DNA of 64,000 nucleotides from Acidimicrobiales bacterium (GTDB lineage: Bacteria; Actinomycetota; Acidimicrobiia; Acidimicrobiales; Bog-793): NCBI GenBank assembly GCA_050012675.1, contig JBEKGS010000001.1, forward strand, positions 128,733-192,732, read 5' to 3'. Below, piece by piece: positions 24,659 to 50,599 of this stretch. The number at the start of each line of letters is the position of its first letter. Position 1 is the first letter of the stretch. Both the position numbers and the translations under genes were made by a program. The notes beneath the pieces are model-generated. The model ran no database searches and had not been told where the DNA came from. It was given only the letters and a program-made list of their open reading frames with translations.

Positions 24659-24963
24659 CGAAGGCCCTTTCTGAGTGACCCGGCCACAGCAGGTCAGCTG
24701 TGTGGACAAGCCGCGATCGTCATACGGTAATGGCCAAGGTCGCCCCGCCGTCCGTGGTCGCTGATCGCGGCGGCACGCCGAACGCCTCGGACAAGCTCTT
24801 GGCAGCCGCGGCGACGCCACAGGACGGGGTGCGCGGTGAGGACTCGGAGTCGTCCCGGCTGTCCTTGACGCCGGGCATATGCTGAGAGTGGTCGGGTCGT
24901 CACAAGTTGAGACCTGGTCCTGGGGGGGAGGCCGGCGACACTGTGAGTAGTCCGCGCAACGAG

Positions 24964-27900
24964 ATGGACCGGCGTTCGGCACTCAAGCTGATCGGGGGCG
25001 CAGTCGCCGGCGTCGCAGTCGGCCCGCGCATGTTGGCACGCCCCGGCCCCTCCTCGAAGTACCCGCTGGTCCCGTTCAGGTCCTACGGCCACTCGTTCCC
25101 GGCGCCGCTGCGCGCGGCCCTCACAAGTTCGGCCAAGCCGAGCCTGGTCTTCCAAGTCGTCCGGACCACCGACATGGTCTATCTCGGCTTCGAGTTCTAC
25201 AACGCCAAGGTTGTCGTCACGGCCGGTCAGACCGAGATAGTCGCCGAGGACACCAAGACGCCGATGTACATGGTCGTCGTGTTCCCTTCCCAGCACCTCG
25301 GCGAGGAGTGCGTTGCCTACACGCCGGGAGTGACCACTTGGCCGACCAGCCCCATGAGAGGCGCCCTTGCCGGTTTCAGCTGGCTCGTGTTCGAGCTTGC
25401 CGGCACGGCCAAGGTTCCCTACACGATGGCGGGTCTCCTCGACTGGTCGAAGGCGAAGCCCGAGCTCGTTCCGGTCGTCACCTCCAGCTCGGGCGAACCT
25501 GCCCCGCCGGATCCCCTCCATACAGCCCTCGAGATCCCCTGGCAGCTCTGGCTCACGCCCCTCGAGCACGGCACCTGGCACCATGCGGCCAGCCCGGTCG
25601 TCTTCAAGCAGATCACCGAGCTCTGGCACACCCGCCTAGGAGCTGGTGACTTCGAGCCGCCGGTGGTCACTCCGTTGCTCAAAGCCTTCTGGGCCCCCGG
25701 CTACGGCGGCACCCTTGCCGGTCCTCCGGCCGACCCGTGGCTCATGTCCCTGTTGCCGCAGAACCGCATCGACATCGTGGCACTCACCACCGGTAGCACT
25801 GCAGGCGACGCTCCGATCGAGGTCGACCTGCTCCTTCTCTCGGCGCTCGGGGCGTCGGTCAACATCCAAGGATCGTGGTCGCCCGGCCCCAACACTCCCG
25901 TCGACACGGCGTCGTGGTGGCACCGTGCATCGGTCGGGCGCGACAGCTACGTGCGCGTCGTCAATATCGGTTACCTCTTCCCGTGGGGCAACCGGGCCAG
26001 CCGGATCACGATCTCGGACCGGGAGATCCAGGTCAACTCCGACGGCGAGGCGGTCGCCTACCTGGTGCAGAAGCAGTACATCGCAGTGAAGGAGCCGGAG
26101 ATCGTCTACACCGGCGACCACTTCGAGCCCAACGACGGGAGGGGCAACCCGATCCGGAGCCTTCTCGTGAAGACGGTGACGACCCCGCCGATCGACTTCG
26201 ACAACACGGTCGATCCGGGCATCAACGTCGGTCCCTTTGCTTCCGACACCGCCGACGTCTTGTGGGTGCGAAGCGGTTTGGAGGACGTCCCGTTCTCTTT
26301 CGTCGGCACCGACGCGGAGGAAAGGAGTGTCGACTTCACGACCGGTGTCATCTGGGTGTCGTCCAGCTTCGCCGAGAACGCGGGCAATCTCCAAAAGGTC
26401 GCTGCGGCTTATGCCGCCGATCCCAGCCGGCGCTCGCCGTCGTTCGGCGGGTCGCTGTTCGCTTTCGCGGACACACTCGGCGCCACCCCGGGGTCCACGG
26501 CCCAGCACGTCAACACCTACGGGCTGGCGGCGCTCGTCGCCGTGAACGGCAGGGCGAACTTCTACCCCGCGCTCGACTCGGCGGCGGTCAGCCTGCCGGG
26601 GGCGGAGCAGATCGTGGGCGCCGGCTCCAGCGCCCTCGCGAGTCCGAGCGTGTCGATCTCGTCCAACTACCTCGCCCACGGGTTCCAAGCCGGAGTGACC
26701 GAGGTGTACCTCGCCGTGACCGAGAACGGCCCCGGCCTTTCCTTCCCGGCCAACCTCGTCGGTGGCATGGCCACGCCCAACTTCGACGTGAGCGGGATAG
26801 CCCGGGACCTCGGTCCCGTCGGTGGCGACCTCAACGACCTGCTGGCGGGCAAGTTCGACCCGACGAAGTACTTCAACATGGTCTCCGGGGACATAGGCAA
26901 GCTCCTCGGCGCCATTTCGGTCGCGGACATCATCCTGCCCGTCGATCCCGACCAGGCCGCGAGCAACGCGCAAGCCCCGCAGATCTCCGACAAGATCATC
27001 TACCCGGACAACGACGACACCAAGCCCCCGACGGCACTCGACGTGAAGATCGACTGGACCCCGACCGTTACGGCGGACCCGACAGGCTTGTTCCAGCCAC
27101 AGGGCGGGGGCCTCACCATCCACGCCGAGATCTACACCCCGATCGCCAACCCGAGCCAGACGACCTACTCGATCCACGGGGACCTCACCAATTTCGAGCT
27201 GCTCCTGTTCGGGACCGACAATCCCTACATCGCGATCACGTTCAACTCCTTCAGCTTCGACTCGAAGACCGGTGCCAAGACCTCGATCCAGCCGGACATC
27301 GACTCTGTCGAGTTCAAGGGCCCGCTCACGTTCATCTCCGAGCTCGAGAACCTGCTCAGCTCGCTGGGTGGCCCGTCGATCTCGGTCAGCGACGGCGGTG
27401 TGGAGGCGAGTTACTCGCTCGCGTTGCCGGATATCGGAGTCGGGGTTTTCGCCCTCCAGAACCTCGCTCTGTCCGCCGGGGTCAACATCCCCTTCGACGG
27501 GACCCCGGTCCGGGTCCGCTTCGGCCTTTCCTCGAGGGACAACCCGTTCATCCTCACCATCGACCTGTTCGGCGGCGGGGGCTTCTTCTCGCTCGGGATC
27601 GGCGCGGACGGGATCGAGCTGATCGAGGTCTCGTTGGAGTTCGGCGCAGACTTGTCCATCGACCTCGGCGTGGCGAGCGGGGGCGTGTCGATAATGGCCG
27701 GGATCTACTTCTCGCTCCAGACCGTTCCGACAAAACAGATCCAGCTCACCGGTTTCCTGCGCGCCGACGGGAACCTGTCCGTGCTCGGGATCATCACGAT
27801 CTCGATGGAGTTCTACCTCGGGCTGACATATCTGGACCCCGGCAAGGCCTACGGCACTGCGACCATCTCGGTCTCGGTGAGCGTGCTGTTCGTGAGCGTC

Positions 27901-28008
27901 TCGGTGGGCGTGACCATGCAAAAGACCATCGGCGGGAGCGGCGACCCCGATTTCAGACAGGCCCTGACGGAGAAGAACTGGCAAACCTACTGCGAGGCCT
28001 TCGCATGA
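24964..28008 (+). CDS. Large Tat-signal protein of unknown family (1,014 aa), giant ORF A
   Basis: The N-terminus MDRRSALKLIGGAVAGVAVGPRMLARP has a twin-arginine motif (RRxALK), an h-region and an A-x-A-like cleavage site. Strong GC3 bias runs across all 3 kb. I recognised no named domain. The stop overlaps the next start (ATGA). Confidence 0.85.
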   Translation: MDRRSALKLIGGAVAGVAVGPRMLARPGPSSKYPLVPFRSYGHSFPAPLRAALTSSAKPSLVFQVVRTTDMVYLGFEFYNAKVVVTAGQTEIVAEDTKTPMYMVVVFPSQHLGEECVAYTPGVTTWPTSPMRGALAGFSWLVFELAGTAKVPYTMAGLLDWSKAKPELVPVVTSSSGEPAPPDPLHTALEIPWQLWLTPLEHGTWHHAASPVVFKQITELWHTRLGAGDFEPPVVTPLLKAFWAPGYGGTLAGPPADPWLMSLLPQNRIDIVALTTGSTAGDAPIEVDLLLLSALGASVNIQGSWSPGPNTPVDTASWWHRASVGRDSYVRVVNIGYLFPWGNRASRITISDREIQVNSDGEAVAYLVQKQYIAVKEPEIVYTGDHFEPNDGRGNPIRSLLVKTVTTPPIDFDNTVDPGINVGPFASDTADVLWVRSGLEDVPFSFVGTDAEERSVDFTTGVIWVSSSFAENAGNLQKVAAAYAADPSRRSPSFGGSLFAFADTLGATPGSTAQHVNTYGLAALVAVNGRANFYPALDSAAVSLPGAEQIVGAGSSALASPSVSISSNYLAHGFQAGVTEVYLAVTENGPGLSFPANLVGGMATPNFDVSGIARDLGPVGGDLNDLLAGKFDPTKYFNMVSGDIGKLLGAISVADIILPVDPDQAASNAQAPQISDKIIYPDNDDTKPPTALDVKIDWTPTVTADPTGLFQPQGGGLTIHAEIYTPIANPSQTTYSIHGDLTNFELLLFGTDNPYIAITFNSFSFDSKTGAKTSIQPDIDSVEFKGPLTFISELENLLSSLGGPSISVSDGGVEASYSLALPDIGVGVFALQNLALSAGVNIPFDGTPVRVRFGLSSRDNPFILTIDLFGGGGFFSLGIGADGIELIEVSLEFGADLSIDLGVASGGVSIMAGIYFSLQTVPTKQIQLTGFLRADGNLSVLGIITISMEFYLGLTYLDPGKAYGTATISVSVSVLFVSVSVGVTMQKTIGGSGDPDFRQALTEKNWQTYCEAFA

Positions 28009-37931: not shown

Positions 37932-38942
37932 TCAACTCGCGTAGAGGATCGAGAACGTCCCGCCGTGAGGACCGGCCAAACCGTTGCCGTTGCCCACAGT
38001 GCCGGTCGTCTGTGGCGGTCCTCCGGCGACGGGAAAGACAGCCCTCTCGGCGGAGTACAAGTAGAGCGGCTTGCCGTCATAAGTCACCTGTTCGGTTCCG
38101 TCAAGGCGGCGGATGACGCCCACGTCTCTTGCAGCGATGCCGGCAGCGACATGGGGCCTTCCCGTCGTGAGCAGGGGGACCCACTCGACGGCGCAGGTGC
38201 CGGTGCAGGCACTGGACCGCGAACGGTCCTTGCTGTAGGAGTAAACGGTCACCGCCATCGGACGGACGTTCGACTCCATCTCCGCGGCGACGGCGGTCCT
38301 GCCGTCCGGCAGGGTCTCGGTTTCGATCGTGGCCGGGCCGGCCACCGGTTGGCCTCCCTCCGACGACACGAGGAACCAGTACCCGTGCCAGGGTGGGAGC
38401 GGTTTCACCGTTTCCATGTAGCGCTCGCCCTGAGGCTTGAAGGGCCGTGACGGGGTGTCGAACAGGTAGAGCGGATGCCCTCCGTAGGTGACCTGGCGTC
38501 CGATGCCGCGGCGGTAAACGCTCCCGAGGAGCTTGGGGTTGACTCCCGGGCCCGCAACAGGTGCACCGGTGCTGGTGAGCGCGGGCCAGTCGTCGGTGTA
38601 CCCATTGCCGATGATGTCGCTCATCGGACCGCTGCAGGTCAGAACAATGTCGTGGTCCGAGCCAGGGTCGAACCCCAGCTCCGCGGTTCTGCCGCAGCTG
38701 TACCTGCCGGCGCTGTCACCACTGAACTCATAGATCGGGTAACCGGCCAGTTCGTTGTCGACACCGCCCACAACGAGCACCGAGCCGTAGCTGCTGGTCT
38801 TAAGGACGGTCACCACCGTTGCCGCCTGAGCAGCTGTCTTGGCCGACGCTCCCGCCGGCGACATGAGCGAGGCCGCGCTGAGTGCTGCGGCGGTCATCGA
38901 CACCAGGAATCGGCGCGACTCTCGCGCCAGTCCGATCTTCAT
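37932..38942 (-). CDS. Secreted protein or lipoprotein with repeats of the 'secreted repeat of unknown function' type (GxPLYxFxxD)
   Basis: ATG 38942 is preceded by GGGGGGA. Signal peptide MKIGLARESRRFLVSMTAAALSAASLMSPAGASA. Repeated motifs GYPIYEFSGD, GHPLYLFDTP and GKPLYLYSAE. Confidence 0.75.
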   Translation of the reverse strand: MKIGLARESRRFLVSMTAAALSAASLMSPAGASAKTAAQAATVVTVLKTSSYGSVLVVGGVDNELAGYPIYEFSGDSAGRYSCGRTAELGFDPGSDHDIVLTCSGPMSDIIGNGYTDDWPALTSTGAPVAGPGVNPKLLGSVYRRGIGRQVTYGGHPLYLFDTPSRPFKPQGERYMETVKPLPPWHGYWFLVSSEGGQPVAGPATIETETLPDGRTAVAAEMESNVRPMAVTVYSYSKDRSRSSACTGTCAVEWVPLLTTGRPHVAAGIAARDVGVIRRLDGTEQVTYDGKPLYLYSAERAVFPVAGGPPQTTGTVGNGNGLAGPHGGTFSILYAS

Positions 38943-39149
38943 TGTCCCCCCGTCAAACAAGCGACCGGTTACCAAACCCGATTCCGCAAGACATTACCGG
39001 TGTGCAAAGGCTGCGATGCTCACCGCCCGGCGCGAGCCACAGGCGCAACGGGGCCGGTAACCATCTTGGACGAGCGGCCGACGGTCGCGGACGCCGGTTG
39101 CCTCAGGCAATCGGTACCAGGGCTGTCGGCTGGTGGCCTTCTCGCCGGC

Positions 39150-39617
39150 TCAGCGGCGTCGTGTCCTTGTGTCGGCCCCTTTGATGAGCACAAACAGGTC
39201 ATGCCAGGCAGGATCCGTGAACCCTGCCTCCAACAGGAGACGGGAGCAGCGCTTCTCAGTTCGGGCCTTGCCTCGGCGACTCGTGAGGAGCGTCGGGATC
39301 AAAAGCCGCGAGAACTGGTCTACGAGAAGGAGGCGTCCGCCCGGGATCAGTACCCTCGCGCACTGTGCGAGACCGGCCCGCTGATCGGTCCAGTGGTCGA
39401 ATGAGGTCGTGCTCACAACGAGGTCGAAGGCTCCGTCCCTGAACGGCAACTGCTCGACGATGCCGGAGCAGTACTGAAGGCGCCTGTCCTCCGACTTGGT
39501 TCGGGCGATCTCGATCATCGCGGGCGCCGGATCGACGCCGACCAGGTCGGTCACGCCCGGGCACAACCGGGCAAGGCGGCGCAGTAGATAGCCGGTACCG
39601 CATCCGACGTCGAGCAC
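39150..39617 (-). CDS. Class I SAM-dependent methyltransferase (core); the conserved N-terminal region continues in frame to 39800 without a canonical start codon
   Basis: Contains SAM motif I LDVGCGTGYL and motif post-I VGVDPAPAMI, plus FDLVVSTTSFDHW and LIPGGRLLLVD. Upstream in-frame codons encode DIAAFDERAPDYEAGWLGRLHREIADR, which is a typical methyltransferase N-terminus. Confidence 0.75.
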   Translation of the reverse strand: MLDVGCGTGYLLRRLARLCPGVTDLVGVDPAPAMIEIARTKSEDRRLQYCSGIVEQLPFRDGAFDLVVSTTSFDHWTDQRAGLAQCARVLIPGGRLLLVDQFSRLLIPTLLTSRRGKARTEKRCSRLLLEAGFTDPAWHDLFVLIKGADTRTRRR

Positions 39618-40274: not shown

Positions 40275-41138
40275 ATGCTCAAAGGCTCGGAAACGACCGA
40301 GGTTCGGTACCTTGTATTGCCCGACATCGCGAACCCGTACCTGCTCGCGATGGTGCGCTTTCCCGACGTTGCCCAGGCGATCAGCCAGGGACAGCCCGAG
40401 TGGCAGGGCGACCCGGGCCTGTTCGATCTCCCTTACGACCCGAGCAGCGTCGCGGTGTCGCCCGCCCACGCCGCTTCGATTGCGGCCCGCTGGGGCGCGC
40501 GCCTGCCTTCCGACAAGGAGGAGCCCGCATCCTCGCTGATCCGGCGTATGCCGGCCAACTGGTCCAACCTCTCGCCCGCGGAAAAGCGCGCCTGGTCTCT
40601 CGAGTACCTCGCCGGATGGCGACGGGCGGCCCCACTTTCCCGGATACGCCGTCGCTCGGCGCGCCCGGCCGACTTGGGCCAGGCCGGAAATGGGTTCAGC
40701 CTTCCCGACGCGACGGGCGACGGATCATCGCCATCTAACGGCTCTTATTTGGCAAGCGGTGGCCGGAGCAGACAGACGCCAGCGACCCGGGAACGCCGAC
40801 GCCACGCCCGGGTGCGTGTCCGGGGACGAGCGCGCCTGAGCATTGGGCGCAAGACCGTCTTGGCGAATCTGGTCAATGTCAGCCAGGGCGGAGCAAATTG
40901 CGTGGTGGCGGACGGGGAGTTTCACCTCGCGCCCGGTGGCTTGATCGAAGCGCCCCTCATGTTCGAGGATCAGCTCTCCCTGTCCCAGGTCAGCCTCGAC
41001 GTCGCCGCCAGCGTCGCCTGGAGAAGCGATACAGGGACCGGCACCCAGTTCGGGCTCGTGTTCGGTGAGCTGAACAACGATCAGGCCGAACTGGTCCAGC
41101 AATTCCTGTCGTCGGTCGGTTCTGAGACAGGTTCCTGA
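40275..41138 (+). CDS. PilZ-domain (c-di-GMP receptor) protein with an uncharacterised N-terminal domain
   Basis: The C-terminus has canonical PilZ motifs: RRRHAR (RxxxR), then NVSQGG (N-x-S-x-x-G) about 25 residues later. ATG 40275 is chosen over the upstream track start at 40176. The stop lies 2 nt before the lepB ATG. Confidence 0.7.
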   Translation: MLKGSETTEVRYLVLPDIANPYLLAMVRFPDVAQAISQGQPEWQGDPGLFDLPYDPSSVAVSPAHAASIAARWGARLPSDKEEPASSLIRRMPANWSNLSPAEKRAWSLEYLAGWRRAAPLSRIRRRSARPADLGQAGNGFSLPDATGDGSSPSNGSYLASGGRSRQTPATRERRRHARVRVRGRARLSIGRKTVLANLVNVSQGGANCVVADGEFHLAPGGLIEAPLMFEDQLSLSQVSLDVAASVAWRSDTGTGTQFGLVFGELNNDQAELVQQFLSSVGSETGS

Positions 41139-41140
41139 TC

Positions 41141-41944
41141 ATGCGCGTGAGCTCTCCCAGCACGGGAGAACAGCCGCCTGCGTCCGGCGGCGTGGCTCTC
41201 GAACAAGCGGAGCGTGGTTCGGTCGCAGGCTTTGTCGCGGGCGACGGGGACCAGAGCGTGAGGCCGGCGAGGGCATTTCGCTCGCGCAGGGGCGCCGACT
41301 ACCGACTGCGGGGGCTGGAACTGGCCCGGCCGGAGACGGCCGCGAAGCCGGCGCAACCGGCAAAGAAGCTGCGGGCCCGGCAGAGTCGGCGAAAGCACCG
41401 CAGACTGGTAGTCAAGTGGGCCGTCGTCCTCGCCGTGGCCGCCGCCGCCGCCGTGTTTCTGAGGGCTTCTGTGTTCCAGCCCTTCTCCGTGCCTTCGGCT
41501 TCGATGTTGCCTACCCTCCAGGTCGGCGATCGGATACTCGTAGTGAAGTCGAGCCCCTTGGCCGGAGCCATCCGGACAGGGGATATCGTCGTCTTCCGCC
41601 ATCCGAAGCCATTTCCCTGCAGCTCGGGTGAGGTCAAGGCCGGGGACCTCGTGCAGCGGGTGATCGGTCTGCCCGGTGAGACGATCTGGTCCGACGGTGA
41701 CAGGATCTATGTGAACGGTCGCCCGCTGAGCGAGGCGGGCTGGTACGACTCGCTGTACGGGCAGGTCGGATCCACGCCGATACTCCGTACGACGATCCCG
41801 CAAGGCGAGTACTTCGTGATGGGTGACAACCGCTCGGATGCATGCGACTCCCGGGCGTTCGGCGCGGTTGCCCGATCGGCCATTGTCGGCAAGGTGTTCG
41901 CCATCGTCATGCGCGCCGGTCACCCGTACATCCACCTGTTCTGA
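41141..41944 (+). CDS. lepB: Signal peptidase I
   Basis: Catalytic boxes SVPSASMLPTLQVGDRILV (Ser), HPKPF...LVQRVIGLPGE (Lys box) and GDNRSDACDSRAFG. It has a single TM after a basic N-terminal extension. Confidence 0.9.
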   Translation: MRVSSPSTGEQPPASGGVALEQAERGSVAGFVAGDGDQSVRPARAFRSRRGADYRLRGLELARPETAAKPAQPAKKLRARQSRRKHRRLVVKWAVVLAVAAAAAVFLRASVFQPFSVPSASMLPTLQVGDRILVVKSSPLAGAIRTGDIVVFRHPKPFPCSSGEVKAGDLVQRVIGLPGETIWSDGDRIYVNGRPLSEAGWYDSLYGQVGSTPILRTTIPQGEYFVMGDNRSDACDSRAFGAVARSAIVGKVFAIVMRAGHPYIHLF

Positions 41945-41990
41945 GCCGCGCGCGGCTCCCAGGCATCCAGGTCCCAAACGGAGCCGTCAG

Positions 41991-43097
41991 GTGGTCCTCG
42001 TCACCAGGTTCGTGACGTGGTGCCGCCAACATGCAGGTGGGCGGCGCTGGGCCGGTGTGCTTGTTGCCCTGTGCAGCCTCGCGCCGCTCCTTGCTGCGTG
42101 CGCACAGGCTGACGCCGGACCCGCAAGGGTTTCCCTACTGCCAGATCCCGCTGCCAACGGGGCGACTTGGGCCTGGACCGCACGCTGCCTCTACGGTCCT
42201 TACTCGCACGGAACCTGTAAAGACGCGGGGCCCAGTCTCGGGGCCGCCCAGCTGATCGGGGATGAATGGAATCTGGGCGGCGGCGCGGCGACGGCCGGGT
42301 CACTGGACATGTCGGTGAGCTCTCCCGGAGCGCTGGAACTAGAGGGTGACTTTCCCTCCACGCCGCCCTGCACTCAAGCCACCTGTCTCGCACCGAGCGC
42401 GAACACCTGGGTGCGCGGTTATCCAGACGTGCTGTATGGCTTCAATGAATGCCATACGGTCAGCCCTCCGCCGCAGTCCCGGGTCATGCCGATGCCGGTC
42501 AACGTCGCTGCCATCCCTACCGATCTCATCGGCACCACGACCTACGACTCGACGTCGCCGACGGTGACCTATGACGTCGCCTACGACCTTTGGCTCAATC
42601 GTTCGGACACGAAGAGACCCTGCAGAACAGAGGGCACAGTCGAGGTCATGGTCTGGACCGACTATGACCAGCAGGCGTTGCTGCCCTCGAGTATGCAAGT
42701 CGAAGACGTGACCATCCCGTTCGCGAGCGACGGGGTCGTCCACACCGGCACGTTCGCCTGGTCCGTCTACGTGAGCAACGTGTACGGGAAGGGCCAGACC
42801 GCACCGTGGGGCGGCACGGTCTGGTTCGTGTTGAACAAGGCTGACGTCGTCGCCAAGGGCACGGTGAGCGTCGACCTCAGCTATGTCCTTTCAGTCGTGG
42901 GCGCGCTCTTGCAGAACAACTACGGCTGGAACGACTTTCGCAAGAGCTACTGGCTCGACTCGATACCCTTCGGAATGGAGTTCGGCCCCGAGGACGGCGC
43001 TCTTTACGGCACGGGGTCGTCGTACTTCTCGCTCAGGCTCTCGTCCTACTGCCTCGACGTGGGGGCGACACTCTCACACGCAGCCTGCGCCGGGTGA
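41991..43097 (+). CDS. GH12-like endo-beta-1,4-glucanase, lipoprotein
   Basis: GTG 41991 gives a signal with lipobox (LCSLAPLLAAC). GH12-type blocks are present: IGDEWNLGG, YDVAYDLWLN, GTVEVMVWTDY (nucleophile Glu motif E-[IV]-M-[IV]-W) and WLDSIPFGMEFG (acid/base Glu). The track ORF start at 41823 overlaps lepB. Confidence 0.65.
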   Translation: MVLVTRFVTWCRQHAGGRRWAGVLVALCSLAPLLAACAQADAGPARVSLLPDPAANGATWAWTARCLYGPYSHGTCKDAGPSLGAAQLIGDEWNLGGGAATAGSLDMSVSSPGALELEGDFPSTPPCTQATCLAPSANTWVRGYPDVLYGFNECHTVSPPPQSRVMPMPVNVAAIPTDLIGTTTYDSTSPTVTYDVAYDLWLNRSDTKRPCRTEGTVEVMVWTDYDQQALLPSSMQVEDVTIPFASDGVVHTGTFAWSVYVSNVYGKGQTAPWGGTVWFVLNKADVVAKGTVSVDLSYVLSVVGALLQNNYGWNDFRKSYWLDSIPFGMEFGPEDGALYGTGSSYFSLRLSSYCLDVGATLSHAACAG

Positions 43098-43099
43098 GT

Positions 43100-43135
43100 C
43101 CCAACGCCCCGGCCAAGGGCGTGCCGGGCGTTGGG
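43100..43135. terminator. Bidirectional terminator-like hairpin between the convergent GH12 and GT2 genes
   Basis: CCCAACGCC(C)CGGC-caagggcgt-GCCGGGCGTTGGG forms a 13-bp stem with one bulged C. It sits in the 47-nt gap between the stops at 43097 and 43145. Confidence 0.55.
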
Positions 43136-43144
43136 AGGGGACTG

Positions 43145-46036
43145 CTACCTGGTCGACAGCGTCACACTGCCGGTCGAAACCCCCGACAGGTTCTCGTCAA
43201 AGGAAGTGACGATGGCGCTGTGGAAGGTCTCCGTCGTCTCGATCGTGCTCGCGTGGTCACCTCCCGCCTGCTGGCTGACGACGAGCGTGAGGGCGGGGAT
43301 CCCCTTTCCGGGAACGCCGCTACGAAGGATCTCGTCCAAGAGCGCGAGCGAGGAGGTCTGAAAGCTCAGGCTGAACCGCCCCGCGGATCTCCCGGCGGAC
43401 GTCCGCGGTTGTGAGAGCTCGACCGACGTCACGGGGTAGGCGACAGCCGCCCTGGAGCGGGCCGTGCCGACCTTGACAGAGAGCGCCGTGACGCTCGGCG
43501 AGGCCTGTTCAGTGTGGGCGACGACACCGAGAGCCCGGACGGCTCGGGGAGAGGTGAGCAGGTGGCCGAGCACGGGCAGCGAGAGCGTCGCCCCACCTGT
43601 CGGCAAGCCGGAGAGGTTCTCGTGGAACGAGGTGACGACGGCGTTGTAGAAGGTATCGGCCGCCTCGGTCGCGATCGCCCGCCCGCCGCTTGCCTGCGTG
43701 CGTGCAACCAGCGTGAGCTCAGGGACGGTCCTTCCGGACCCGTCGTAACCGAAGACCGCTTCCAAAGCGGCGAGCGAGGAGGTGTCGAAGCTCAGCTCGA
43801 GTCGGTCGGGCGAACCGGCTGCTGAGGAAAGCGGTTGAGACAGCTCGACCGAGGTGACGGGGAAATAGGTCCTCGACGGGGTCCCGCCCAGCGTCATGTA
43901 GACCTGCGTACCCGCCGACGAGTGGAAGACCGTGCGCTGATTGAACGTGTTCGCGCTCAGAAGCGTCGAAGGGGTGATGAAGGCACCCGCTATTCCCCCC
44001 GCACCGATTGCGAAAAGGAGAGCGAGAGCCGGGCCCAACACAGGCACAGGCGGCCGGCCGCGTCGCGCCCGGCGAAGACGCTGTTGCTCGAAGCGTTGCC
44101 GATAGGTGAGTGCGGGCAGCCGTTGCGCCCGTTGGTTCCACAAGGAAGCGACCGGCGAGCACGCGTACACCGAGCCCTGAATGGCGATGATGACGACCAG
44201 CAGCCAAGGCGGATGTGCTGATGCGGCGAGCAGGCCCGCCGAGGTGTACAGGGCGACCGCCAACAGGGTCTCGACGCGACTCAACCGCAGCGCAGTGCGT
44301 ACCCTTTGGCGACTGCCACCGGACTTGGCGGTTCTCAAGAACACGCCGTCTCGTCGTGTCAGGCCCTCTATGCAGGCGAGAGCCGTGATCCAGGTCGCGG
44401 AGAGGCTGATCAAAAGGCCGAGGAAGGCGCGGCGATGAGACATGGTCGTCCAATGGCGCAGCGTCCACATCATGCAGATTGCGGCGATCAGGATGAGCGA
44501 CATCGGCAGCAGTGACCGGTCGCCGCCAAAAGGCATGAGGGCGAAGCCGGAGCCGGAGAGCCGCAGCCCTGTTATCACGAGCAGTAGCACGGCGAAGCCG
44601 AACATCAGCAGGTCTCTCCACCATCCGAAACAAGCCATCAGATAGTCCCTGCGCTGACTGCTCGAGAGGTGGTTGTCAGGCGAGCGGTCGAAGGGCATGA
44701 GGCTGCGCCAGTGGAGGCGGAAGATCTGCATGGCGCCGAAGCACCAGCGGTGCCGTTGTGTGTTGAGACCGGCGTAGGTGGGTGGCACGATTCCCCGGCC
44801 GAAGCAGCGCGGTATGTAGAGGCCCGCCCAGCCCGCCTTGGACATGCGAAGGGACGCCTCGGTGTCCTCGCTGATGCACCACTCGTTCCAGCCACCGATG
44901 CCGACGAGTGCACTGCGGCGGAACAGGCCCATTGTCCCTACAAAAGGAACTGAGTCGCGCTCGTTGCGCGAAGACATGACGGAGAGATAGAAGCCTTGAT
45001 AAGAGTCGACACAGGCCGTGTAGTAGGCGCTGCCCTCGTAGTCCCTGTTGCCCTCGAAGGTCTGGAGGAAGCCGAGGTGCGGATCGGAGAAGTACGGCAC
45101 GGTCTCGCGCAGGTAGTACGGCTGGACGATGTCGTCGGCGTCGATCAAGCCGATGATCTCTGCTCGCGGGTCTGTGTAGCGGCGTAAGGCGAGGTTGCAG
45201 GCACCGGCCTTGTAGCCCGGCCAGGGTGCGACATGGACGAACCGGACGCGCTCGCGACCGCGGCAGTACTCCTCCACCGGACCGTAAACCGCAGGGTCCG
45301 AGGTGTTGTTGTCGATGACGACCACTTCGAAATTCGGGTAGTCGATCGCCTCGGCCGCCTTGATCGTGTTGATGAGAAGCTCGGGTGGTTCGTTGTAGGC
45401 AGGGATGTGCAGTGAGACGAACGGCTTGTAGGAGGGATCGGCGACCGGCAACGGGCGTGAGCGGCGCCGGCGGCACAGGACGTCGCTGACGTAGTTGATG
45501 TTCGAGCCCCACACTATGAAGGCCGCGAGATCGAGCAGGAGCAGGAATGAAGACGTCAAAGCTTCGGCGATCGAATGCGTCGCCGCGGCCGCGACATATC
45601 CCGCAAAGGCGATGAAGGTGAACCCTGCTGCGATATAGGAGGCGTGGAAGACCGAACCGACGATCCCGGTGTCGGGGCGGAGGACTATTACGACGACCTC
45701 GAAGATCACGAGCATATAGGCCGCTATCTCGAGCCCACCGATGGGCTTTCCCCAAAGCTCATAGGTGGCAAAGCAGGAGAAGGCAGAGATCGCGACCGCG
45801 CCAAGAGCGGCTAGGAGGACTTCGGTCACCTTGGAGCCCGTCCACCTCAAGCGGGTGTCAAACTCCCGAAGTGGGCTCAGCACCAGCACCGTCGTGAGCA
45901 GCAGCTGCGCGAACGAGACGATGAACAGGTCGTAGAGATTGAACTGACGCAGCAGCACTTGGACGTCCCCCCTCGCAGTCGTACACCTCGCCAAAGCGTG
46001 CGAGCTATACCTTATCGTGCCTTTTGCGGCGGGCAA
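43145..46036 (-). CDS. Processive GT2 beta-glycan synthase (cellulose-synthase-like) with a C-terminal tandem duplicated domain
   Basis: N-terminal TM bundle, then the GT2 blocks VVIDNNTSD, IDADD, GTMGLFRR, ISEDTE (TED) and QRHRWCFG (QxxRW). More TM helices follow, then ~250 aa made of two ~112-aa repeats. The start is uncertain (TTG 46036 or GTG 45958, which is preceded by GAGGGGGGG). Confidence 0.85.
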   Translation of the reverse strand: MPAAKGTIRYSSHALARCTTARGDVQVLLRQFNLYDLFIVSFAQLLLTTVLVLSPLREFDTRLRWTGSKVTEVLLAALGAVAISAFSCFATYELWGKPIGGLEIAAYMLVIFEVVVIVLRPDTGIVGSVFHASYIAAGFTFIAFAGYVAAAATHSIAEALTSSFLLLLDLAAFIVWGSNINYVSDVLCRRRRSRPLPVADPSYKPFVSLHIPAYNEPPELLINTIKAAEAIDYPNFEVVVIDNNTSDPAVYGPVEEYCRGRERVRFVHVAPWPGYKAGACNLALRRYTDPRAEIIGLIDADDIVQPYYLRETVPYFSDPHLGFLQTFEGNRDYEGSAYYTACVDSYQGFYLSVMSSRNERDSVPFVGTMGLFRRSALVGIGGWNEWCISEDTEASLRMSKAGWAGLYIPRCFGRGIVPPTYAGLNTQRHRWCFGAMQIFRLHWRSLMPFDRSPDNHLSSSQRRDYLMACFGWWRDLLMFGFAVLLLVITGLRLSGSGFALMPFGGDRSLLPMSLILIAAICMMWTLRHWTTMSHRRAFLGLLISLSATWITALACIEGLTRRDGVFLRTAKSGGSRQRVRTALRLSRVETLLAVALYTSAGLLAASAHPPWLLVVIIAIQGSVYACSPVASLWNQRAQRLPALTYRQRFEQQRLRRARRGRPPVPVLGPALALLFAIGAGGIAGAFITPSTLLSANTFNQRTVFHSSAGTQVYMTLGGTPSRTYFPVTSVELSQPLSSAAGSPDRLELSFDTSSLAALEAVFGYDGSGRTVPELTLVARTQASGGRAIATEAADTFYNAVVTSFHENLSGLPTGGATLSLPVLGHLLTSPRAVRALGVVAHTEQASPSVTALSVKVGTARSRAAVAYPVTSVELSQPRTSAGRSAGRFSLSFQTSSLALLDEILRSGVPGKGIPALTLVVSQQAGGDHASTIETTETFHSAIVTSFDENLSGVSTGSVTLSTR
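43154..43909 (-). repeat. Tandem ~340-nt duplication inside the GT2 gene, encoding two Hcp-like repeats (R1 43574-43909, R2 43154-43495)
   Basis: The duplication is visible at DNA level (for example GGTTCTCGTCAAAGGAAGTGACGATGGCGCTGTGGAAGGT versus GGTTCTCGTGGAACGAGGTGACGACGGCGTTGTAGAAGGT). It is also clear at protein level (YFPVTSVELSQP...LELSFDTSSLAALEAVF...PELTLVART...TFYNAVVTSFHENLSG versus AYPVTSVELSQP...FSLSFQTSSLALLDEIL...PALTLVVSQ...TFHSAIVTSFDENLSG). Confidence 0.8.
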
Positions 46037-46075
46037 ACACGGATTTTCCCGCCGCAGGCCGAGCTCCTTATGTGC

Positions 46076-47779
46076 TCACGGATGTTCCGTCCGGGCGGCG
46101 GACCCCTGAGTCGGCGAGGTCTTGCCGAACCCGTACAAGATGCCGTCTTGGACGCCGACATAGAGCATGTTCTCGCCTACACCCGGCGGGCTGAAGGCGT
46201 TGGTGTTGCCGACGAACCATGTCCCGAGGAGCTTCAGTCTCCGGTTCACCGGCACCGGCTCGTAGGCCTGGAGGCTCGCGCCGTCGATGACCCAGACGAC
46301 CGCAGATCCCGAGGTGGTGCCGTCGGAGGTCACGATGGGACCCGATACCCCGAAGACCGCCGCCTGCGAGCCGTATCCGACGAGGCTCAAGGCGGGCAGA
46401 CCACCTGTGGTCGAGTATTTGTAGACGTCTACCGCACCGGCGTGGCCGCTCGGGCTCTGAATCGTCGAGACGTAGACATAGCCCCCGTCACCGGGCCAGA
46501 CACCGGCTGTCGATATCGCTTGTCCGTTCGGCCCGTATTCCCCGACGACGTCGTCCCTCCCGCTCGGGCCTTGGTTGTGGCCACCGAGGTTGTCAGCGTT
46601 GAGCAGGTAGACGATGCCCTCTTTCCCAGTGGCGACAAGGAGATGCGGGTATTTCGGGGCGGAGAACTCAGTCGGCAACAGGACCGGTGAACCCGACATG
46701 TCCCAGTCGTTCTCGTCGGCCAGGGCGTCGTTGTGGATCGCGAAGAAATCCGTCGCCTTGAGTGAGCCGTCCTTTTGCACGCCGAGGCGGACGACGGAAT
46801 CACCGAGGTTCAAAGGTGGCGAGTGCCCGGGGATCGAGCCATCGGGATGGTTGGTCTCGGGGCCTTCGGCATTCCCGGACGCGAACAGGATCTGACCGGG
46901 ACCGTCGGAACTGAGACCACCGCTCGCCTGCCAGATGCCGGCTCCGCCGCCTTCGCTCCCTGGACCCGCTTCGTCGGTCCACAGCGTCGTCTGGCGGCCG
47001 GCGGTCGATACGCCCGCTACGAACCCGGCAAAAGGCGTGTGATCGCAGTGCGACCCGAAGGCGGCGTACACGACGCCGTCCAGGTACAAAAGGCCAGGCC
47101 TTTGCATCTCTTGCAGGGGACGGAACGCCTGTTGCGGGTTGTTGCTGGCTGGACCGTTGATCTCGACCGGGAAGCGGGGCATCTCGGCACCGGTGGCAGG
47201 GTTGATGGCGTTCATGAACCATCCAATCCCCGCACCGCCTGGCAAATGAACCTGATCGACGAGGTAGGCGACACCTGTGGTCGGGTCGATCGCCGGAGTT
47301 GAGGTCACTCCCAGGTAGGGGATCAGGTCAGGGCAGTGCACCGGAGCGTCTTCGAAGGGCGTCCCGATCTGGCGCGACCACTCAATGGCTCCCGTCGTCG
47401 GGTTGAGACCGTAGACCCAGTTGGTCTCCGTAGCGACGAGCAGAATCTTCCCGACGAGAAGGGGTTGCGCATAGATCTGGCCGTTGAGCTGTGTCTTGAA
47501 GACGATCCCGAACTGAGACGACCCTACGACTTCGGGGCTCAGGCCCGGCTCGTAGGAATACCAGCCGTCGCGAGAGTCGCCGCCCCGGTTTGTCTCAAGC
47601 TGAACGCTCTCGGGTGGGCCCGTCTGTTGGGCTGAGGCGGCGGCGCCCCTTTGTCCAGAGGTTCGCAGAGCCGCCCGCGTCTGCGCCGCGTGCCCGGTGG
47701 CCACGGCACCCGCGACTGTCGCCTCGACCACAAGCGCAGAAAGTGCCAGCGCGACCGTCAGCACGAGCACGGGCCGCAT
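46076..47779 (-). CDS. Secreted PQQ-like (BamB-like) beta-propeller repeat protein
   Basis: ATG 47779 gives the signal MRPVLVLTVALALSALVVEATVAGA. Repeated motifs are of the type GQIYAQPLLVGKILLVATETNWVYGLNPTTGAIEWSRQ. The stop lies 40 nt upstream of the GT2 gene start. Confidence 0.75.
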   Translation of the reverse strand: MRPVLVLTVALALSALVVEATVAGAVATGHAAQTRAALRTSGQRGAAASAQQTGPPESVQLETNRGGDSRDGWYSYEPGLSPEVVGSSQFGIVFKTQLNGQIYAQPLLVGKILLVATETNWVYGLNPTTGAIEWSRQIGTPFEDAPVHCPDLIPYLGVTSTPAIDPTTGVAYLVDQVHLPGGAGIGWFMNAINPATGAEMPRFPVEINGPASNNPQQAFRPLQEMQRPGLLYLDGVVYAAFGSHCDHTPFAGFVAGVSTAGRQTTLWTDEAGPGSEGGGAGIWQASGGLSSDGPGQILFASGNAEGPETNHPDGSIPGHSPPLNLGDSVVRLGVQKDGSLKATDFFAIHNDALADENDWDMSGSPVLLPTEFSAPKYPHLLVATGKEGIVYLLNADNLGGHNQGPSGRDDVVGEYGPNGQAISTAGVWPGDGGYVYVSTIQSPSGHAGAVDVYKYSTTGGLPALSLVGYGSQAAVFGVSGPIVTSDGTTSGSAVVWVIDGASLQAYEPVPVNRRLKLLGTWFVGNTNAFSPPGVGENMLYVGVQDGILYGFGKTSPTQGSAARTEHP

Positions 47780-48049
47780 TCGAGGAGACCGCGCCAACGG
47801 ACCTATCTTCGACGCAGCCCCTGGTCTTGTTGTGGGCCCAAGTGCACCAGGCACCGAGCACGAGTCAGTTCTTCTTCCCCCTCGCAATGACACGACACGC
47901 CTCCCCCAGCGAACGCTCCAAGAAAACAGCCACAACTTGTTATCCCAGGGCGGCACTCACGTGGCCACGTCCGGAGCTGTCATGGTAGCAAGGGTGTGAG
48001 GATCTGCTGTTCGATCCCGTACTTCGATCCGGAACCGGTTCCCGGGCGG

Positions 48050-50599
48050 CTACTCGTCGGTTGGCGGCACCGTCGTGGGCAGCCATGCTGTCACGTCGGC
48101 ACTGGACTGACCGAAGCCGACCATGTAACGGCCGCGGACGGTGCGGAAACGGCCGCCGAGGAAGGCTTCGAAACTGCTGAGCGGCAGCACCACGGTGACT
48201 TGTCCGGATGCCTTCGGGACGAGCGTCACGGTCTGGAATCCGGCAAGCTGGCGCGGAGGCTCGCCGGCGCCGACCGGAAAGCGCACGTAGATCTCGACCA
48301 CGTCGGTCCCGCTGCGTCTGCCCGCGTTGGTCACGGTCATGTGGGCGAGCAGGCGTTTGCCGCCCGTCCAGCTCAGGCTGACCTTCGAGACGGAGAAAGC
48401 GGTGTAGCTCAGCCCATATCCGAACGGGAACAAGGGCTGAACGCCATGTGCCTCGTACCAGCGGTAGCCGATGTCGAGACCCGACGCGTAGGTGACGGTG
48501 CCGTCCACGCCGGGAAAGTTGTTCCCGGCGGCTGCGCGCGCGGTCGCTTCTGTGGCCGGGAAGCTCAGGGGCAACCTGCCTGACGGGTCCACGAGACCGG
48601 TGAGGACCGCTGCGATGGCAGTCCCGTCGTCCTCCCCCGGGTACCAGGCTTCGAGGACCCCCTTGACACTTGCCAGCCAAGGCATGAGGACCGCGCCCCC
48701 GGTGTTCAGCACGACGACGGTCTCGGGGTTGGCTCTGGCCACCGCCTCGATGAGGGCGTTCGCGTCACCGGGCAGATCGAGGCTCGGCCGGTCGACGCCT
48801 TCGGCCTGGGGACAGCCGGCAAATACCAGGGCCACCTTGGAGTTGCGTGCGACATCGACGGCACGGGCGATGAGAGGTGAAACGTCCTCGAACCCGAGCT
48901 GTGGCAGGCGATCGCCGTCGACCGACAGCCACTCCACAACGAGCCTGTAGGAGCGTCCGGCCCGGAGTTCGGTCGTGGCGGACCAGCTGGGCCGAGCGTT
49001 GAGGCCCGGAGAGGCGAGCAGGCTGTGCCCGTTGACCGCGAGCCAGGTCTGGCCTCCATATTCGAGGGAGAACTCGTATACGCCACTGCGGCGAACGCGG
49101 ATCGCGGCCTTCCACGACCACCAAGGGCCAGCGGGTGAGGAGGCGGTGCGGACAGGGGGGGTGATGCTGGTCGCCGTTTCGGGCCCAGGGTCGCCGGCAC
49201 GCTCTGCGCCTGTCCGAGTCTCCGCCGGCAGAGGGCCGCCGCTCACAAAGTCAACCGAGGGGATGGGTTCCAGCACGCTTCCTGCCGGCTCACCGGCCGC
49301 AGTTCCGATCCTGGTGCCTTTGCGGAGAGCCTTTCGTAGGGCCTCGAGCGGGGTGATCAGGAAAGGGGGGTTGACGAAAGCGCTTCCTGCGCCCGCGGTC
49401 ACGGCCGCGCTCTCGGCGTCCAGGCCGATGACCGCGACCGAGCGGGGCGAGCGTGCGAGAGGCAGCACATGGGCGGCGTTCTTGAGCAGCACGACCGAGC
49501 GCTCAGCGACCCGCAGTGCTGTCAGGCCATCACGTGGCGTTGCCGCCGGTGCTGCGAGATTCGCGGTCCGGGGGTGGGCGATCAGGCCGTAGGCGAACAT
49601 CTCGGTGAGCACGCGAACGACGGCCGTGTTCAGCATGCTCAACGTGATCGAGTGCTGGCGGACGGCTCGGGTGATCAGCACCCTGGTTTCGTCTGCCTTG
49701 GTTGGCTTGATCAGGTCGAGCCCCGCCTGGAACGCTGGCGCCGGTGCGCTGACGGCCCCGAGGTCGGAGCGGACGAAGCCCGTGAAGCCCCATGAGCGCA
49801 GCAGCCCGTAAAGGCTCGGATCCGCGCAGTCGGTGACACCGTTCAAGACACCGTAAGCGCACATCACCGAGGCCACGTGTGCCTGAGTGACCACAGCCTG
49901 GAAGGGCTTGTCGTACAGCTCCAACAGGGCGCGCTCTGAGACGATCTCGCGGAGGGTCTTCCGTTGTGTCTCCTGGTTGTAGGCGGTGAAGTGCTTTGCG
50001 ACTGCCATCACGTCGCGGGACTGGATCCCCTCAACATCCGCGACACCCATGACGGAGGTGAGGAACGGGTCCTCGCCGAAGGCTTCGAAGGTCCGACCGC
50101 TTTGTGGTACCTGTGCCAGGTTCAACTCAGGGGCCTGCACGGCGTCGAGCCCCTTGGCGCGGGCCTCGACGCCCAGCACCTCGCCATAGTCGTAGGCGAG
50201 CTCCGGGTCGAAGGTGGCAGCCAAGGCGACCGAGGCCGGGAGCTGGGTGACGCCGCGGAGGTCGAAGGCAATGCCATTCGGGCCGTCGACAAGCGTCAGC
50301 GGAGGGATGCACAAAGCGGGCACACCGGTGTTGATGTTCTCGATCCGACCGCGCCGGACCAGTTCGACAAAGCCGACCTTCTCGGCGAGCGTCATCCTCG
50401 CGACCACCTGAACCGCCAGCTGCTCGGGAGCAGCAGCGTGCCTCAGGGACTCCTGCACCCAGGGGCAGCGGCTGGAGGCCCGCGAGCCGGCGGGGCGACC
50501 TACGGGAAGGCTGGAGGATCCTCGGTTGCACGCAGCGACGACGAGCGCCACCGCTACGGCCACTGTCACGCGACCAAGGAGCGGCTGATGGAGGTTCAC
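48050..50599 (-). CDS. GH3 beta-glucosidase with a PA14-like insertion and C-terminal FnIII-like domain; lipoprotein signal
   Basis: GH3 blocks are present (VAKHFTAYNQE, GFVRSDLGA, the GH3 C-terminal domain VLLKN...IAVIG, and LEAWYPGEDDGTAIAAVLTG). The PA14-like segment reads RSGVYEFSLEYGGQTWLAVNG. N-terminal lipobox ALVVAAC. Confidence 0.9.
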   Translation of the reverse strand: MNLHQPLLGRVTVAVAVALVVAACNRGSSSLPVGRPAGSRASSRCPWVQESLRHAAAPEQLAVQVVARMTLAEKVGFVELVRRGRIENINTGVPALCIPPLTLVDGPNGIAFDLRGVTQLPASVALAATFDPELAYDYGEVLGVEARAKGLDAVQAPELNLAQVPQSGRTFEAFGEDPFLTSVMGVADVEGIQSRDVMAVAKHFTAYNQETQRKTLREIVSERALLELYDKPFQAVVTQAHVASVMCAYGVLNGVTDCADPSLYGLLRSWGFTGFVRSDLGAVSAPAPAFQAGLDLIKPTKADETRVLITRAVRQHSITLSMLNTAVVRVLTEMFAYGLIAHPRTANLAAPAATPRDGLTALRVAERSVVLLKNAAHVLPLARSPRSVAVIGLDAESAAVTAGAGSAFVNPPFLITPLEALRKALRKGTRIGTAAGEPAGSVLEPIPSVDFVSGGPLPAETRTGAERAGDPGPETATSITPPVRTASSPAGPWWSWKAAIRVRRSGVYEFSLEYGGQTWLAVNGHSLLASPGLNARPSWSATTELRAGRSYRLVVEWLSVDGDRLPQLGFEDVSPLIARAVDVARNSKVALVFAGCPQAEGVDRPSLDLPGDANALIEAVARANPETVVVLNTGGAVLMPWLASVKGVLEAWYPGEDDGTAIAAVLTGLVDPSGRLPLSFPATEATARAAAGNNFPGVDGTVTYASGLDIGYRWYEAHGVQPLFPFGYGLSYTAFSVSKVSLSWTGGKRLLAHMTVTNAGRRSGTDVVEIYVRFPVGAGEPPRQLAGFQTVTLVPKASGQVTVVLPLSSFEAFLGGRFRTVRGRYMVGFGQSSADVTAWLPTTVPPTDE

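Follow-up and report, generated by a model that had tools for sequence, protein, structure and literature searches.

Here, we describe a gene module of uncultured Actinomycetota that most likely represents an undescribed variant of synthase-dependent beta-glucan secretion. It was found in a stretch of 64,000 nucleotides (nt) from Acidimicrobiales bacterium (GenBank assembly GCA_050012675.1, contig JBEKGS010000001.1, positions 128,733 to 192,732; G+C content ~66%), hereafter called the window, in which it forms the larger part of a convergent cluster at positions 40275-50599. An initial annotation of this DNA had interpreted the cluster as six genes for production of a cellulose-like exopolysaccharide linked to c-di-GMP (cyclic diguanosine monophosphate). 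Our comparison of related loci reduces these six genes to a conserved core of four. They encode a BcsA-like synthase of glycosyltransferase family 2 (GT2), a cytoplasmic protein with a new N-terminal domain (N-domain) that may or may not be followed by a PilZ domain, a protein with the fold of signal peptidase I (S26 family), and a hydrolase of glycoside hydrolase family 12 (GH12). To the interpretation of this module as a beta-glucan synthesis and export system specific to Actinomycetota, operating by the mechanism proposed below, we assign a probability of about 0.58. The module was not described in the literature that we searched.

All six open reading frames (ORFs) of the initial annotation were recovered at their places with the domains ascribed to them by Pfam. 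The features of the cluster, and a GAF-EAL gene elsewhere in the window, are as follows.

40275-41138, plus strand: PilZ partner protein, 287 amino acids (PF07238, E 3.4e-12)
41141-41944, plus strand: S26 (signal peptidase I)-fold protein (PF10502, E 3.8e-43)
41991-43097, plus strand: GH12 lipoprotein (Thermotoga maritima Cel12A, 3amh, E 1.7e-11; Pfam score 26.7 bits)
43100-43135, no strand: GC-rich inverted repeat in the gap bounded by the convergent stop codons at 43097 and 43145
43145-45958, minus strand: GT2 synthase, whole gene (Pfam GT2 families; BcsA, E 6e-25)
43961-45958, minus strand: synthase core, BcsA-like GT2, with N-terminal transmembrane (TM) helices, GT-A domain and membrane channel
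43148-43960, minus strand: tail at the C-terminus of the synthase, a tandem pair of repeats with a tail-tube/Hcp-like fold in the model
46076-47779, minus strand: secreted beta-propeller with signal peptide and faint PQQ/BamB-type repeats
48050-50599, minus strand: GH3 beta-glucosidase-type lipoprotein with GH3 N, GH3 C, PA14 and Fn3-like domains (Pfam)
21798-23201, plus strand: GAF-EAL protein (PF00563, E 3.6e-43, plus GAF; EAL motif present)

Gene contexts of database homologs and a one-genome-per-species scan, in which 236 relatives were found and 78 loci kept, together yielded 85 loci. Counts over related loci refer to 75 non-duplicate loci unless another denominator is stated. Throughout the set, the carriers are metagenome-assembled genomes (MAGs) of uncultured Actinomycetota from soil, bog, and peat; they comprise Acidimicrobiales, Thermoleophilia/Solirubrobacterales, and some genomes labeled Streptosporangiaceae or Frankiaceae. 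Linkage was assessed by tblastn with the window proteins, by an architecture count, and by unsupervised clustering of ORFs, and the three approaches agreed. The complete four-gene core was present in 57 of the 75 loci and in 42 of the 53 loci with adequate flanks. It was kept in at least eight gene orders and orientations, the commonest of which is the convergent layout of the window (35 loci). Nine loci show the arrangement N>S>G>H<, and seven, exemplified by L006, carry a single-strand operon in the order GT2, PilZ, S26, GH12 (G>N>S>H>). The genes encoding the N-domain protein and the S26-like protein were adjacent in every case; the stop codon of the former and the start of the latter are 2 nt apart in the window, and the two genes overlap by 4 nt in L007. 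This association of genes is far beyond chance, and retention of the core through rearrangement is strong evidence for functional coupling. Gene linkage is shown by these data; the same holds for the identities of the domains and for the catalytic residues kept or lost, as described in the following. The co-conservation proposed for all six genes held for four of them; the GH3 gene was confined to the four closest loci and propeller homologs to about 29% of the loci.

The best solved relative of the GT2 protein is BcsA of R. sphaeroides (5ej1/4hg6), which aligned with residues 158-493 at an E value of 6e-25. The motifs DxD, xED, KAG, and QRHRW and the gating-loop-like VFLRTxK are invariant in 22 relatives with 58-88% identity, and according to hydropathy the GT domain is flanked by TM segments, as expected for an integral membrane channel. 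Hydropathy and the alignment to BcsA further placed an Arg-rich cytoplasmic linker after TM8, followed by an additional helix, TM9, which is also found in relatives that lack the tail. A PilZ domain in the synthase itself was not detected by Pfam, its C-terminus being composed of TM9 and the tube-like tail. The scores did not reach the CelA/BcsA equivalog cut-offs (TIGR03030, 113.5 against 699.1 bits; PRK11498, 72 against 992). An exact-sequence database look-up of the longest GT2 ORF (963 amino acids) returned no match; the true start gives 937 amino acids, and a synthase with 100% identity is encoded on contig CAZPMY010000013.1 of GCA_964587825.1. These results uphold the earlier assignment of a processive, BcsA-like GT2 synthase whose gene is linked to those of an endoglucanase and of a PilZ protein distinct from the synthase. 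In several related loci (L003, 7148-12808; L007, 5984-11551; L020; L026), two tailed synthase genes, both of full length, follow each other in tandem. They are ~70-78% identical to the core of the window synthase, and such pairs could give rise to hetero-oligomeric synthase complexes.

The start codon of the 287-residue partner protein is backed by a database protein with 100% identity. Its N-domain of ~110 residues (~40275-40619) is characterized by the motifs PYLLA.VR.PDVAQAI, DPGLFDLPYD, and RRMPANW, which are invariant across relatives, and is joined by a disordered linker of ~60 residues to the C-terminal PilZ domain (~40791-41108). In the latter, both c-di-GMP-binding motifs, RxxxR and NxSxxG, are intact (RRHAR...NVSQGG). 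An AlphaFold2 model reached a predicted local distance difference test score (pLDDT) above 90 for PilZ and of 62-89 for the N-domain, with a disordered linker. The PilZ domain of Alg44 was the best fold match of the modeled PilZ domain (4rt1; E 3e-6, TM-score 0.73), the PilZ domain of BcsA was also matched, and the matches included c-di-GMP-bound PilZ structures. The N-domain had no Pfam match even at E<=10, and a Foldseek search with the whole protein model returned matches to PilZ domains and none to the N-domain. A search of 1.84 billion representative proteins found only 154 clusters of its family, almost all of which are short proteins; four long repetitive matches (P0369, P0372, P0376, and P0379) were discarded as low-complexity matches. 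The N-domain was present in 68 non-duplicate related loci. When the partner protein of the window is counted, 69 were examined, and 38 of these contain PilZ. The constant cytoplasmic partner of the synthase is thus the new N-domain, and PilZ is an add-on in about half of the loci. A stand-alone PilZ protein had been correctly noted in the initial annotation.

Neighboring genes lend the c-di-GMP link modest support: of 79 related loci, 12 have GGDEF or EAL genes next to the module. The EAL gene that had been cited in favor of this link does exist in the window and possibly encodes a c-di-GMP phosphodiesterase. It lies 17 kb from the module and is weak evidence for it. In one related locus (L002, 16059-19330), whose synthase is 79% identical, genes for an EAL and a PAS-GGDEF protein are situated directly beside the PilZ gene; the C-terminus of this GGDEF ORF appears frameshifted.

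The second constant partner of the synthase is predicted to have its N-terminus, with the motif DYRLRGL, in the cytoplasm and to cross the membrane with a single TM helix, which places the S26 domain on the outside. Membership in the S26 family, defined by sequence and fold over boxes B-E, is clear from the PF10502 match and from TIGR02227 (134 bits against a cut-off of 47). In the alignment to Escherichia coli LepB, Ser90 is kept and Lys145 is replaced by Gln. Across 68 relatives, the Ser position is occupied by Ala in 46, Ser in 18, Thr in 3, and Gly in 1, and the Lys position by Gln in 22, Leu in 22, Lys in 12, Glu in 7, and other residues in 5; only five proteins retain both members of the dyad. 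The protein has gained the cytoplasmic DYRLRGL motif, which, like a pair of Cys residues and box E, shows conservation of at least 90%. Free variation at the catalytic positions beside strict conservation of other motifs indicates a non-catalytic protein, and we classify the S26-like protein from these patterns as a pseudo-enzyme with a new role. Few partners accompany the synthase as constantly, and this is better explained by a role in structure or binding than by cleavage of signal peptides. The PDB matches include inactive S. pyogenes SipA/LepA (4n31, 4k8w); SipA is an inactive protein resembling signal peptidase that is indispensable for pilus assembly (PMC4049620). What had been called a dedicated LepB paralog is therefore a member of this family and a constant partner, although a catalytically degenerate one. 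Its TIGR02227 score above the cut-off means that automatic pipelines will name it signal peptidase I, making it an annotation trap in the window and in all relatives.

The fourth core component matched T. maritima Cel12A over 212 residues, with both motifs that contain the catalytic Glu residues aligned (VEVMVW and GMEFG); its Pfam score fell just under the GH12 cut-off of 27 bits. The nucleophile Glu was found in 62 of 62 relatives and the acid/base Glu in 60 of 62, and the protein is predicted to be catalytically competent. With the match to Cel12A, the pair of Glu residues, and the lipobox LAAC, the claim of an endoglucanase lipoprotein of family GH12, in place of GH8 or GH6, is well founded. 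The GH12 gene adjoins the GT2 gene in 60 loci.

In contrast to these core components, the GH3 gene was found only in the four closest loci (L001, L008, L009, and L050). On the grounds of synteny, we rejected a place for it in the core and regard the gene as a lineage-specific neighbor or accessory. The protein scored 374 bits with the NCBIfam beta-D-glucosidase model, below its cut-off. A lipobox is present at the long upstream GTG start and is conserved in three relatives, so the earlier description as a lipoprotein holds. In the deposited annotation of L001 (4765-7110), the GH3 protein begins at an internal Met and has 781 amino acids; given the conserved lipobox upstream, this start is probably too short.

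The propeller had been placed in the position of GlxA, the propeller-containing oxidase of Streptomyces. It is predicted to be secreted, its signal peptide agreeing with the initial annotation, and its Pfam matches were faint: 27 bits for PF13570, and 24 bits for PF01011 (cut-off 26.7), which covered only profile positions 48-85 of 595. TIGR03075, the model for pyrroloquinoline quinone (PQQ) dehydrogenase, gave 17.8 against 480 bits, and BamB was the only PDB match (E 0.04). At E<=10, only PQQ/BamB-type repeats were retrieved, with no match to Glyoxal_oxid, kelch, or copper oxidase; nor was a full-length eight-bladed PQQ propeller found above a family cut-off. Homologs occurred in ~22 loci (~29%), closely related in 11, 47% identical in 2, and 24-37% identical in 9, and occupied three different positions. 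A propeller analogous to GlxA was rejected on the missing oxidase signature and this patchy distribution; the protein has no features of GlxA or of PQQ dehydrogenase and is accessory.

The synthase of the window carries a C-terminal tail of 271 residues composed of two repeats of ~115-120 amino acids each, which are 54% identical. Its AlphaFold2 model (pLDDT 75; predicted TM-score, pTM, 0.73) matched tandem-domain tail-tube proteins of the phages T5, DT57C, and P74-26 in the PDB at E values from 7e-7 (T5 pb6/tail tip, 7qg9_A) to 1.6e-5 (P74-26 tail tube, 8ed0) when searched with Foldseek. Single-domain Hcp of type VI secretion systems (T6SS; 6a2v/5xhh/1y12) matched at E values of 4e-3 to 3e-2 with TM-scores of 0.5-0.6, and among the BFVD models, predicted major tail proteins matched at about 1e-6. 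The Hcp-like tail proposed earlier was thus found again at the level of the fold, whereas sequence searches of Pfam (including PF05638), PDB profiles, and PHROGs detected no relatives. The flanking genes provide no T6SS or phage context. Because the additional TM9 follows the cytoplasmic Arg-rich linker, hydropathy and the positive-inside rule predict that the tail is extracytoplasmic. Counting the window, 29 of 69 loci encode a tailed synthase, and PilZ was found in 28 of these 29, compared to 10 of 40 tail-less loci. The modeled fold is the beta-sandwich of phage T5 pb6, of the P74-26 tube protein, and of T6SS Hcp, and pb6 is likewise a tandem fusion of two such domains. Unlike these proteins, the tail forms one polypeptide with a membrane enzyme, lacks sequence similarity to them, and is encoded in a locus without phage or T6SS genes.

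Considering these findings, we propose the following working model. GT2 would polymerize UDP-glucose at its cytoplasmic GT-A domain and pass the chain across the membrane via a channel of its own, as suggested by homology to BcsA. Control would be exerted by a separate cytoplasmic protein in place of the PilZ domain fused to BcsA. The N-domain would dock this partner on the complex, possibly at the cytoplasmic DYRLRGL tail of the S26-like protein or at the Arg-rich linker of the synthase. In the clade of the window, the tethered PilZ domain would bind c-di-GMP and free the gating loop VFLRTxK in trans, comparable to the action of Alg44 on Alg8. The S26-like protein might be the obligatory single-TM structural partner, taking the role that BcsB or GlxA plays elsewhere, with its fold and peptide-binding domain kept outside the membrane. 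For the CslA synthase of Streptomyces, activity requires the TM anchor and the outer domain of such a single-TM partner, GlxA (PMC11022532). At the outer face of the membrane, the GH12 lipoprotein would trim or release the nascent glucan in a manner similar to BcsZ, CcsZ, and CslZ, and in the clade of the window the two tail-tube/Hcp-like domains might steer the chain as it emerges, or bundle it. We take the secreted propeller and the lipoprotein of family GH3 to be clade-specific additions. The polymer would contain beta-1,4 bonds and possibly beta-1,3 bonds. In this model, the interactions between the parts, the substrate, the topology, and the role of the tail are inferred.

A bolder version of this model can be formulated. 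The T5 pb6 and P74-26 tube proteins form trimeric, pseudo-hexameric rings. By analogy, it is tempting to speculate that the tail domains assemble into a pb6-like ring or short tube over a synthase trimer, forming a glucan conduit or bundling collar across the wall, while a dead signal peptidase replaces BcsB as the obligatory partner and the N-domain tethers PilZ to it. We consider this version doubtful.

The nature of the polymer is where an alternative has most to be weighed. In 20 of 65 loci, the module has as a neighbor, at several positions (for instance, L003:2792-4765, minus strand), a homolog of GH55 enzymes (PDB 4pew, E 9e-126; precomputed Pfam label LAM55_pectate-like). The protein of 4pew we take to be Streptomyces SacteLam55A, an exo-beta-1,3-glucanase of family GH55. 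The homolog occurs in six of the eight loci without GH12, and in 16 of 28 tailed compared to 4 of 37 tail-less loci. Because it accompanies or replaces GH12 in relatives, the glucan may be cellulose or of mixed linkage. This raises the possibility that the same module makes a mixed-linkage beta-1,3/1,4-glucan or one rich in beta-1,3 bonds. GH12 would then act as a lichenase-type endo-enzyme, with an exo-acting partner that would be GH3 for the window and GH55 for the relatives. The GH12 family, as defined in CAZy, includes beta-1,3-1,4-glucanases, which would suit such a polymer. BcsA-like synthases producing such glucans are known as well, namely BgsA (PMC5567048) and that of Romboutsia (PMC10374906). 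On the other hand, GH55 is absent from the window, and among solved structures the GH12 protein is best matched by beta-1,4-endoglucanases and the synthase by a cellulose synthase. We regard a polymer of this kind as possible and deserving attention, if not our preferred solution. The beta-glucan of the initial annotation retains its backing by a BcsA-like GT2 with GH12; its description as cellulose-like is insecure. Evidence for a beta-1,4-glucan made from UDP-glucose is indirect and would come from the associated GH12, yet relatives have GH55. A more radical explanation, that GH12, GH3, and the propeller constitute a catabolic set for plant beta-glucan beside an unrelated GT2, with no dedicated exopolysaccharide system at all, could draw on GH3 and GH12 as classic cellulolytic families and on the GH66, GH15, solute-binding, and sugar transporter genes of the major facilitator superfamily in the window. 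It is hard to reconcile with the adjacency of GH12 and GT2 in 60 loci despite rearrangements, some of them with GT2, PilZ, S26, and GH12 in one operon, with a cluster devoid of sugar transporters or regulators, and with conservation of the other parts but not of GH3. We deem it very improbable.

Two further alternatives accept the module but read one of its parts or its purpose differently. The S26-like protein might be a working, specialized signal peptidase, as SipW is for TasA, that matures GH12, the propeller, or GH3, perhaps with a non-canonical base. In the window it still has Ser as nucleophile, retains boxes B, C, and E, and clears the TIGR02227 cut-off by a wide distance, and five relatives have both Ser and Lys. 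This is difficult to square with Gln in place of Lys145, with mostly Gln, Leu, or Glu at this position in relatives, and with the replacement of Ser by Ala in 46 of 68, all the more as these catalytic positions vary freely beside strictly conserved ones. Moreover, GH12 and GH3 as lipoproteins are substrates of signal peptidase II and not I. Hence, an active peptidase appears improbable to us. Alternatively, the polymer might be a component of the cell envelope, like the CslA glucan at the hyphal tips of Streptomyces, and not the matrix of a c-di-GMP-induced biofilm. Like CslA, the synthase occurs without BcsB in a monoderm actinobacterium (PMC11022532), many modules are devoid of PilZ, and an extracellular tail could span the wall or be anchored in it. 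Against this stand the intact PilZ motifs in the clade of the window and the occurrence of neighboring GGDEF/EAL genes. We consider an envelope polymer unlikely, and note that it would overlap with the proposed secretion system, not exclude it.

Several observations weigh against the proposed secretion system and limit the probability that we assign to it. The sequence gives neither the donor sugar nor the linkage, and the GH55 homologs in relatives point to beta-1,3 bonds. The NCBIfam CelA score of the synthase is far under its cut-off, and the PgaC model also matches GT2. About 30 of 69 modules lack PilZ, implying that c-di-GMP control is not intrinsic to the system. The S26-like protein of the window, with its Ser nucleophile, may have residual or altered activity. 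The tail model is of moderate confidence only (pLDDT 75), and the functions proposed for N-domain, S26-like protein, tail, and propeller are inferences. The case as a whole rests on sequences and models from uncultured MAG carriers.

Comparison to described systems illustrates what the module has in common with them and where it departs from them. With the proteobacterial Bcs system (BcsA-BcsB-BcsZ), it shares a processive GT2 with its own channel, the QxxRW motif, a gating loop, PilZ sensing, and a dedicated endoglucanase. It differs in the location of PilZ on a separate protein, in GH12 instead of GH8, in the extra TM9 with or without an extracellular tail, and in a score far below the CelA cut-off; neither BcsB (PF03170) nor GH8 turned up in the six proteins or in genes called at the related loci. 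The CslA-GlxA-CslZ system of Streptomyces likewise has a BcsA-like synthase without BcsB and an endoglucanase in the cluster, and CslA needs a single-TM extracellular partner (PMC11022532). In contrast, our module has no radical copper oxidase, an S26 pseudo-peptidase as partner, GH12 instead of GH6, and a complete PilZ domain in trans. The families GH6 (CslZ) and lytic polysaccharide monooxygenase (LpmP) were absent from the window genes and the called genes of relatives.

In alginate synthesis, the GT2 polymerase Alg8 is also controlled by PilZ on a separate polypeptide, and the translationally coupled pair of PilZ protein and single-TM S26-like protein resembles a split Alg44, which combines PilZ, a TM helix, and a periplasmic domain. 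Polymer and envelope are different, the PilZ protein is soluble and has an N-domain, and the outer domain adopts the S26 fold and not that of a membrane fusion protein. Clostridial CcsA-CcsB-CcsZ and rhizobial BgsA are likewise non-canonical BcsA-like systems with alternative hydrolases (GH5) or c-di-GMP sensing (10.1101/837344; PMC5567048). Ccs keeps a BcsB homolog, BgsA senses c-di-GMP via its own C-terminus, and neither has the S26-like protein, the N-domain, or the tube-like tail. SipA/LepA of S. pyogenes parallels the S26-like protein in its fold, in the loss of the Ser/Lys dyad, and in serving the assembly of a surface polymer (PMC4049620). SipA acts in sortase-dependent pilus assembly, whereas here the partner is a polysaccharide synthase and a conserved cytoplasmic motif is added.

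The two arms of the cluster meet at the GC-rich inverted repeat, as the initial annotation had stated. This hairpin has a GC stem of ~10-13 bp inside the 47-nt gap separating the convergent stop codons and might plausibly serve as a bidirectional terminator. Its minimum free energy of -30.5 kcal/mol is ordinary for such a G+C content (shuffled sequences, -27.3 +/- 2.9; z = -1.1). Short convergent gaps also occur in related loci, often with stems not conserved in sequence. An Rfam scan of the window, which included c-di-GMP riboswitches, gave no match, and no tRNAs were found.

Other genes of the window were recorded alongside. A secreted Lipoprotein_15-repeat protein (37932-38975, minus strand), a short and possibly truncated S-adenosylmethionine-dependent methyltransferase of 155 amino acids (39150-39617, minus strand), and an EryCIII/UDPGT-type glycosyltransferase (23492-24982, minus strand) are not conserved with the module. 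The region 24907-31970 (plus strand) has ~7 kb of coding potential without Pfam match, split over two frames into an ORF of 1033 amino acids with a coding-like GC3 of 0.88 and one of 2031 amino acids, the first part of which resembles a shadow frame. It may encode a giant surface protein with a frameshift. Giant TIG-domain proteins were seen near the module in related loci. At 57427-63801 (minus strand), genes for GH66 (dextranase-type), a solute-binding protein, and GH15 (glucoamylase-type) look like an alpha-glucan utilization cluster unrelated to the glucan synthase module.

How Gram-positive bacteria assemble and export cellulose-like glucans without BcsB or outer membrane components is poorly understood, and studies have been confined to CslA-GlxA and clostridial Ccs. 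The module described here would add a third solution, widespread in abundant uncultured Actinomycetota of soil and peat. Its parts that would be new to the field are a pseudo-signal-peptidase as constant partner, a PilZ protein that acts in trans and has a docking domain of its own, and a phage-tube-like extracellular domain on the synthase. As a compact set of four or five genes that can be expressed heterologously, it opens the way to tests of c-di-GMP gating in trans and of the effect of a tube fold on an emerging polysaccharide. If the tail domains do form a ring or tube over the synthase, a domesticated phage-tube fold would be part of a previously unrecognized architecture for polysaccharide secretion in monoderm bacteria.

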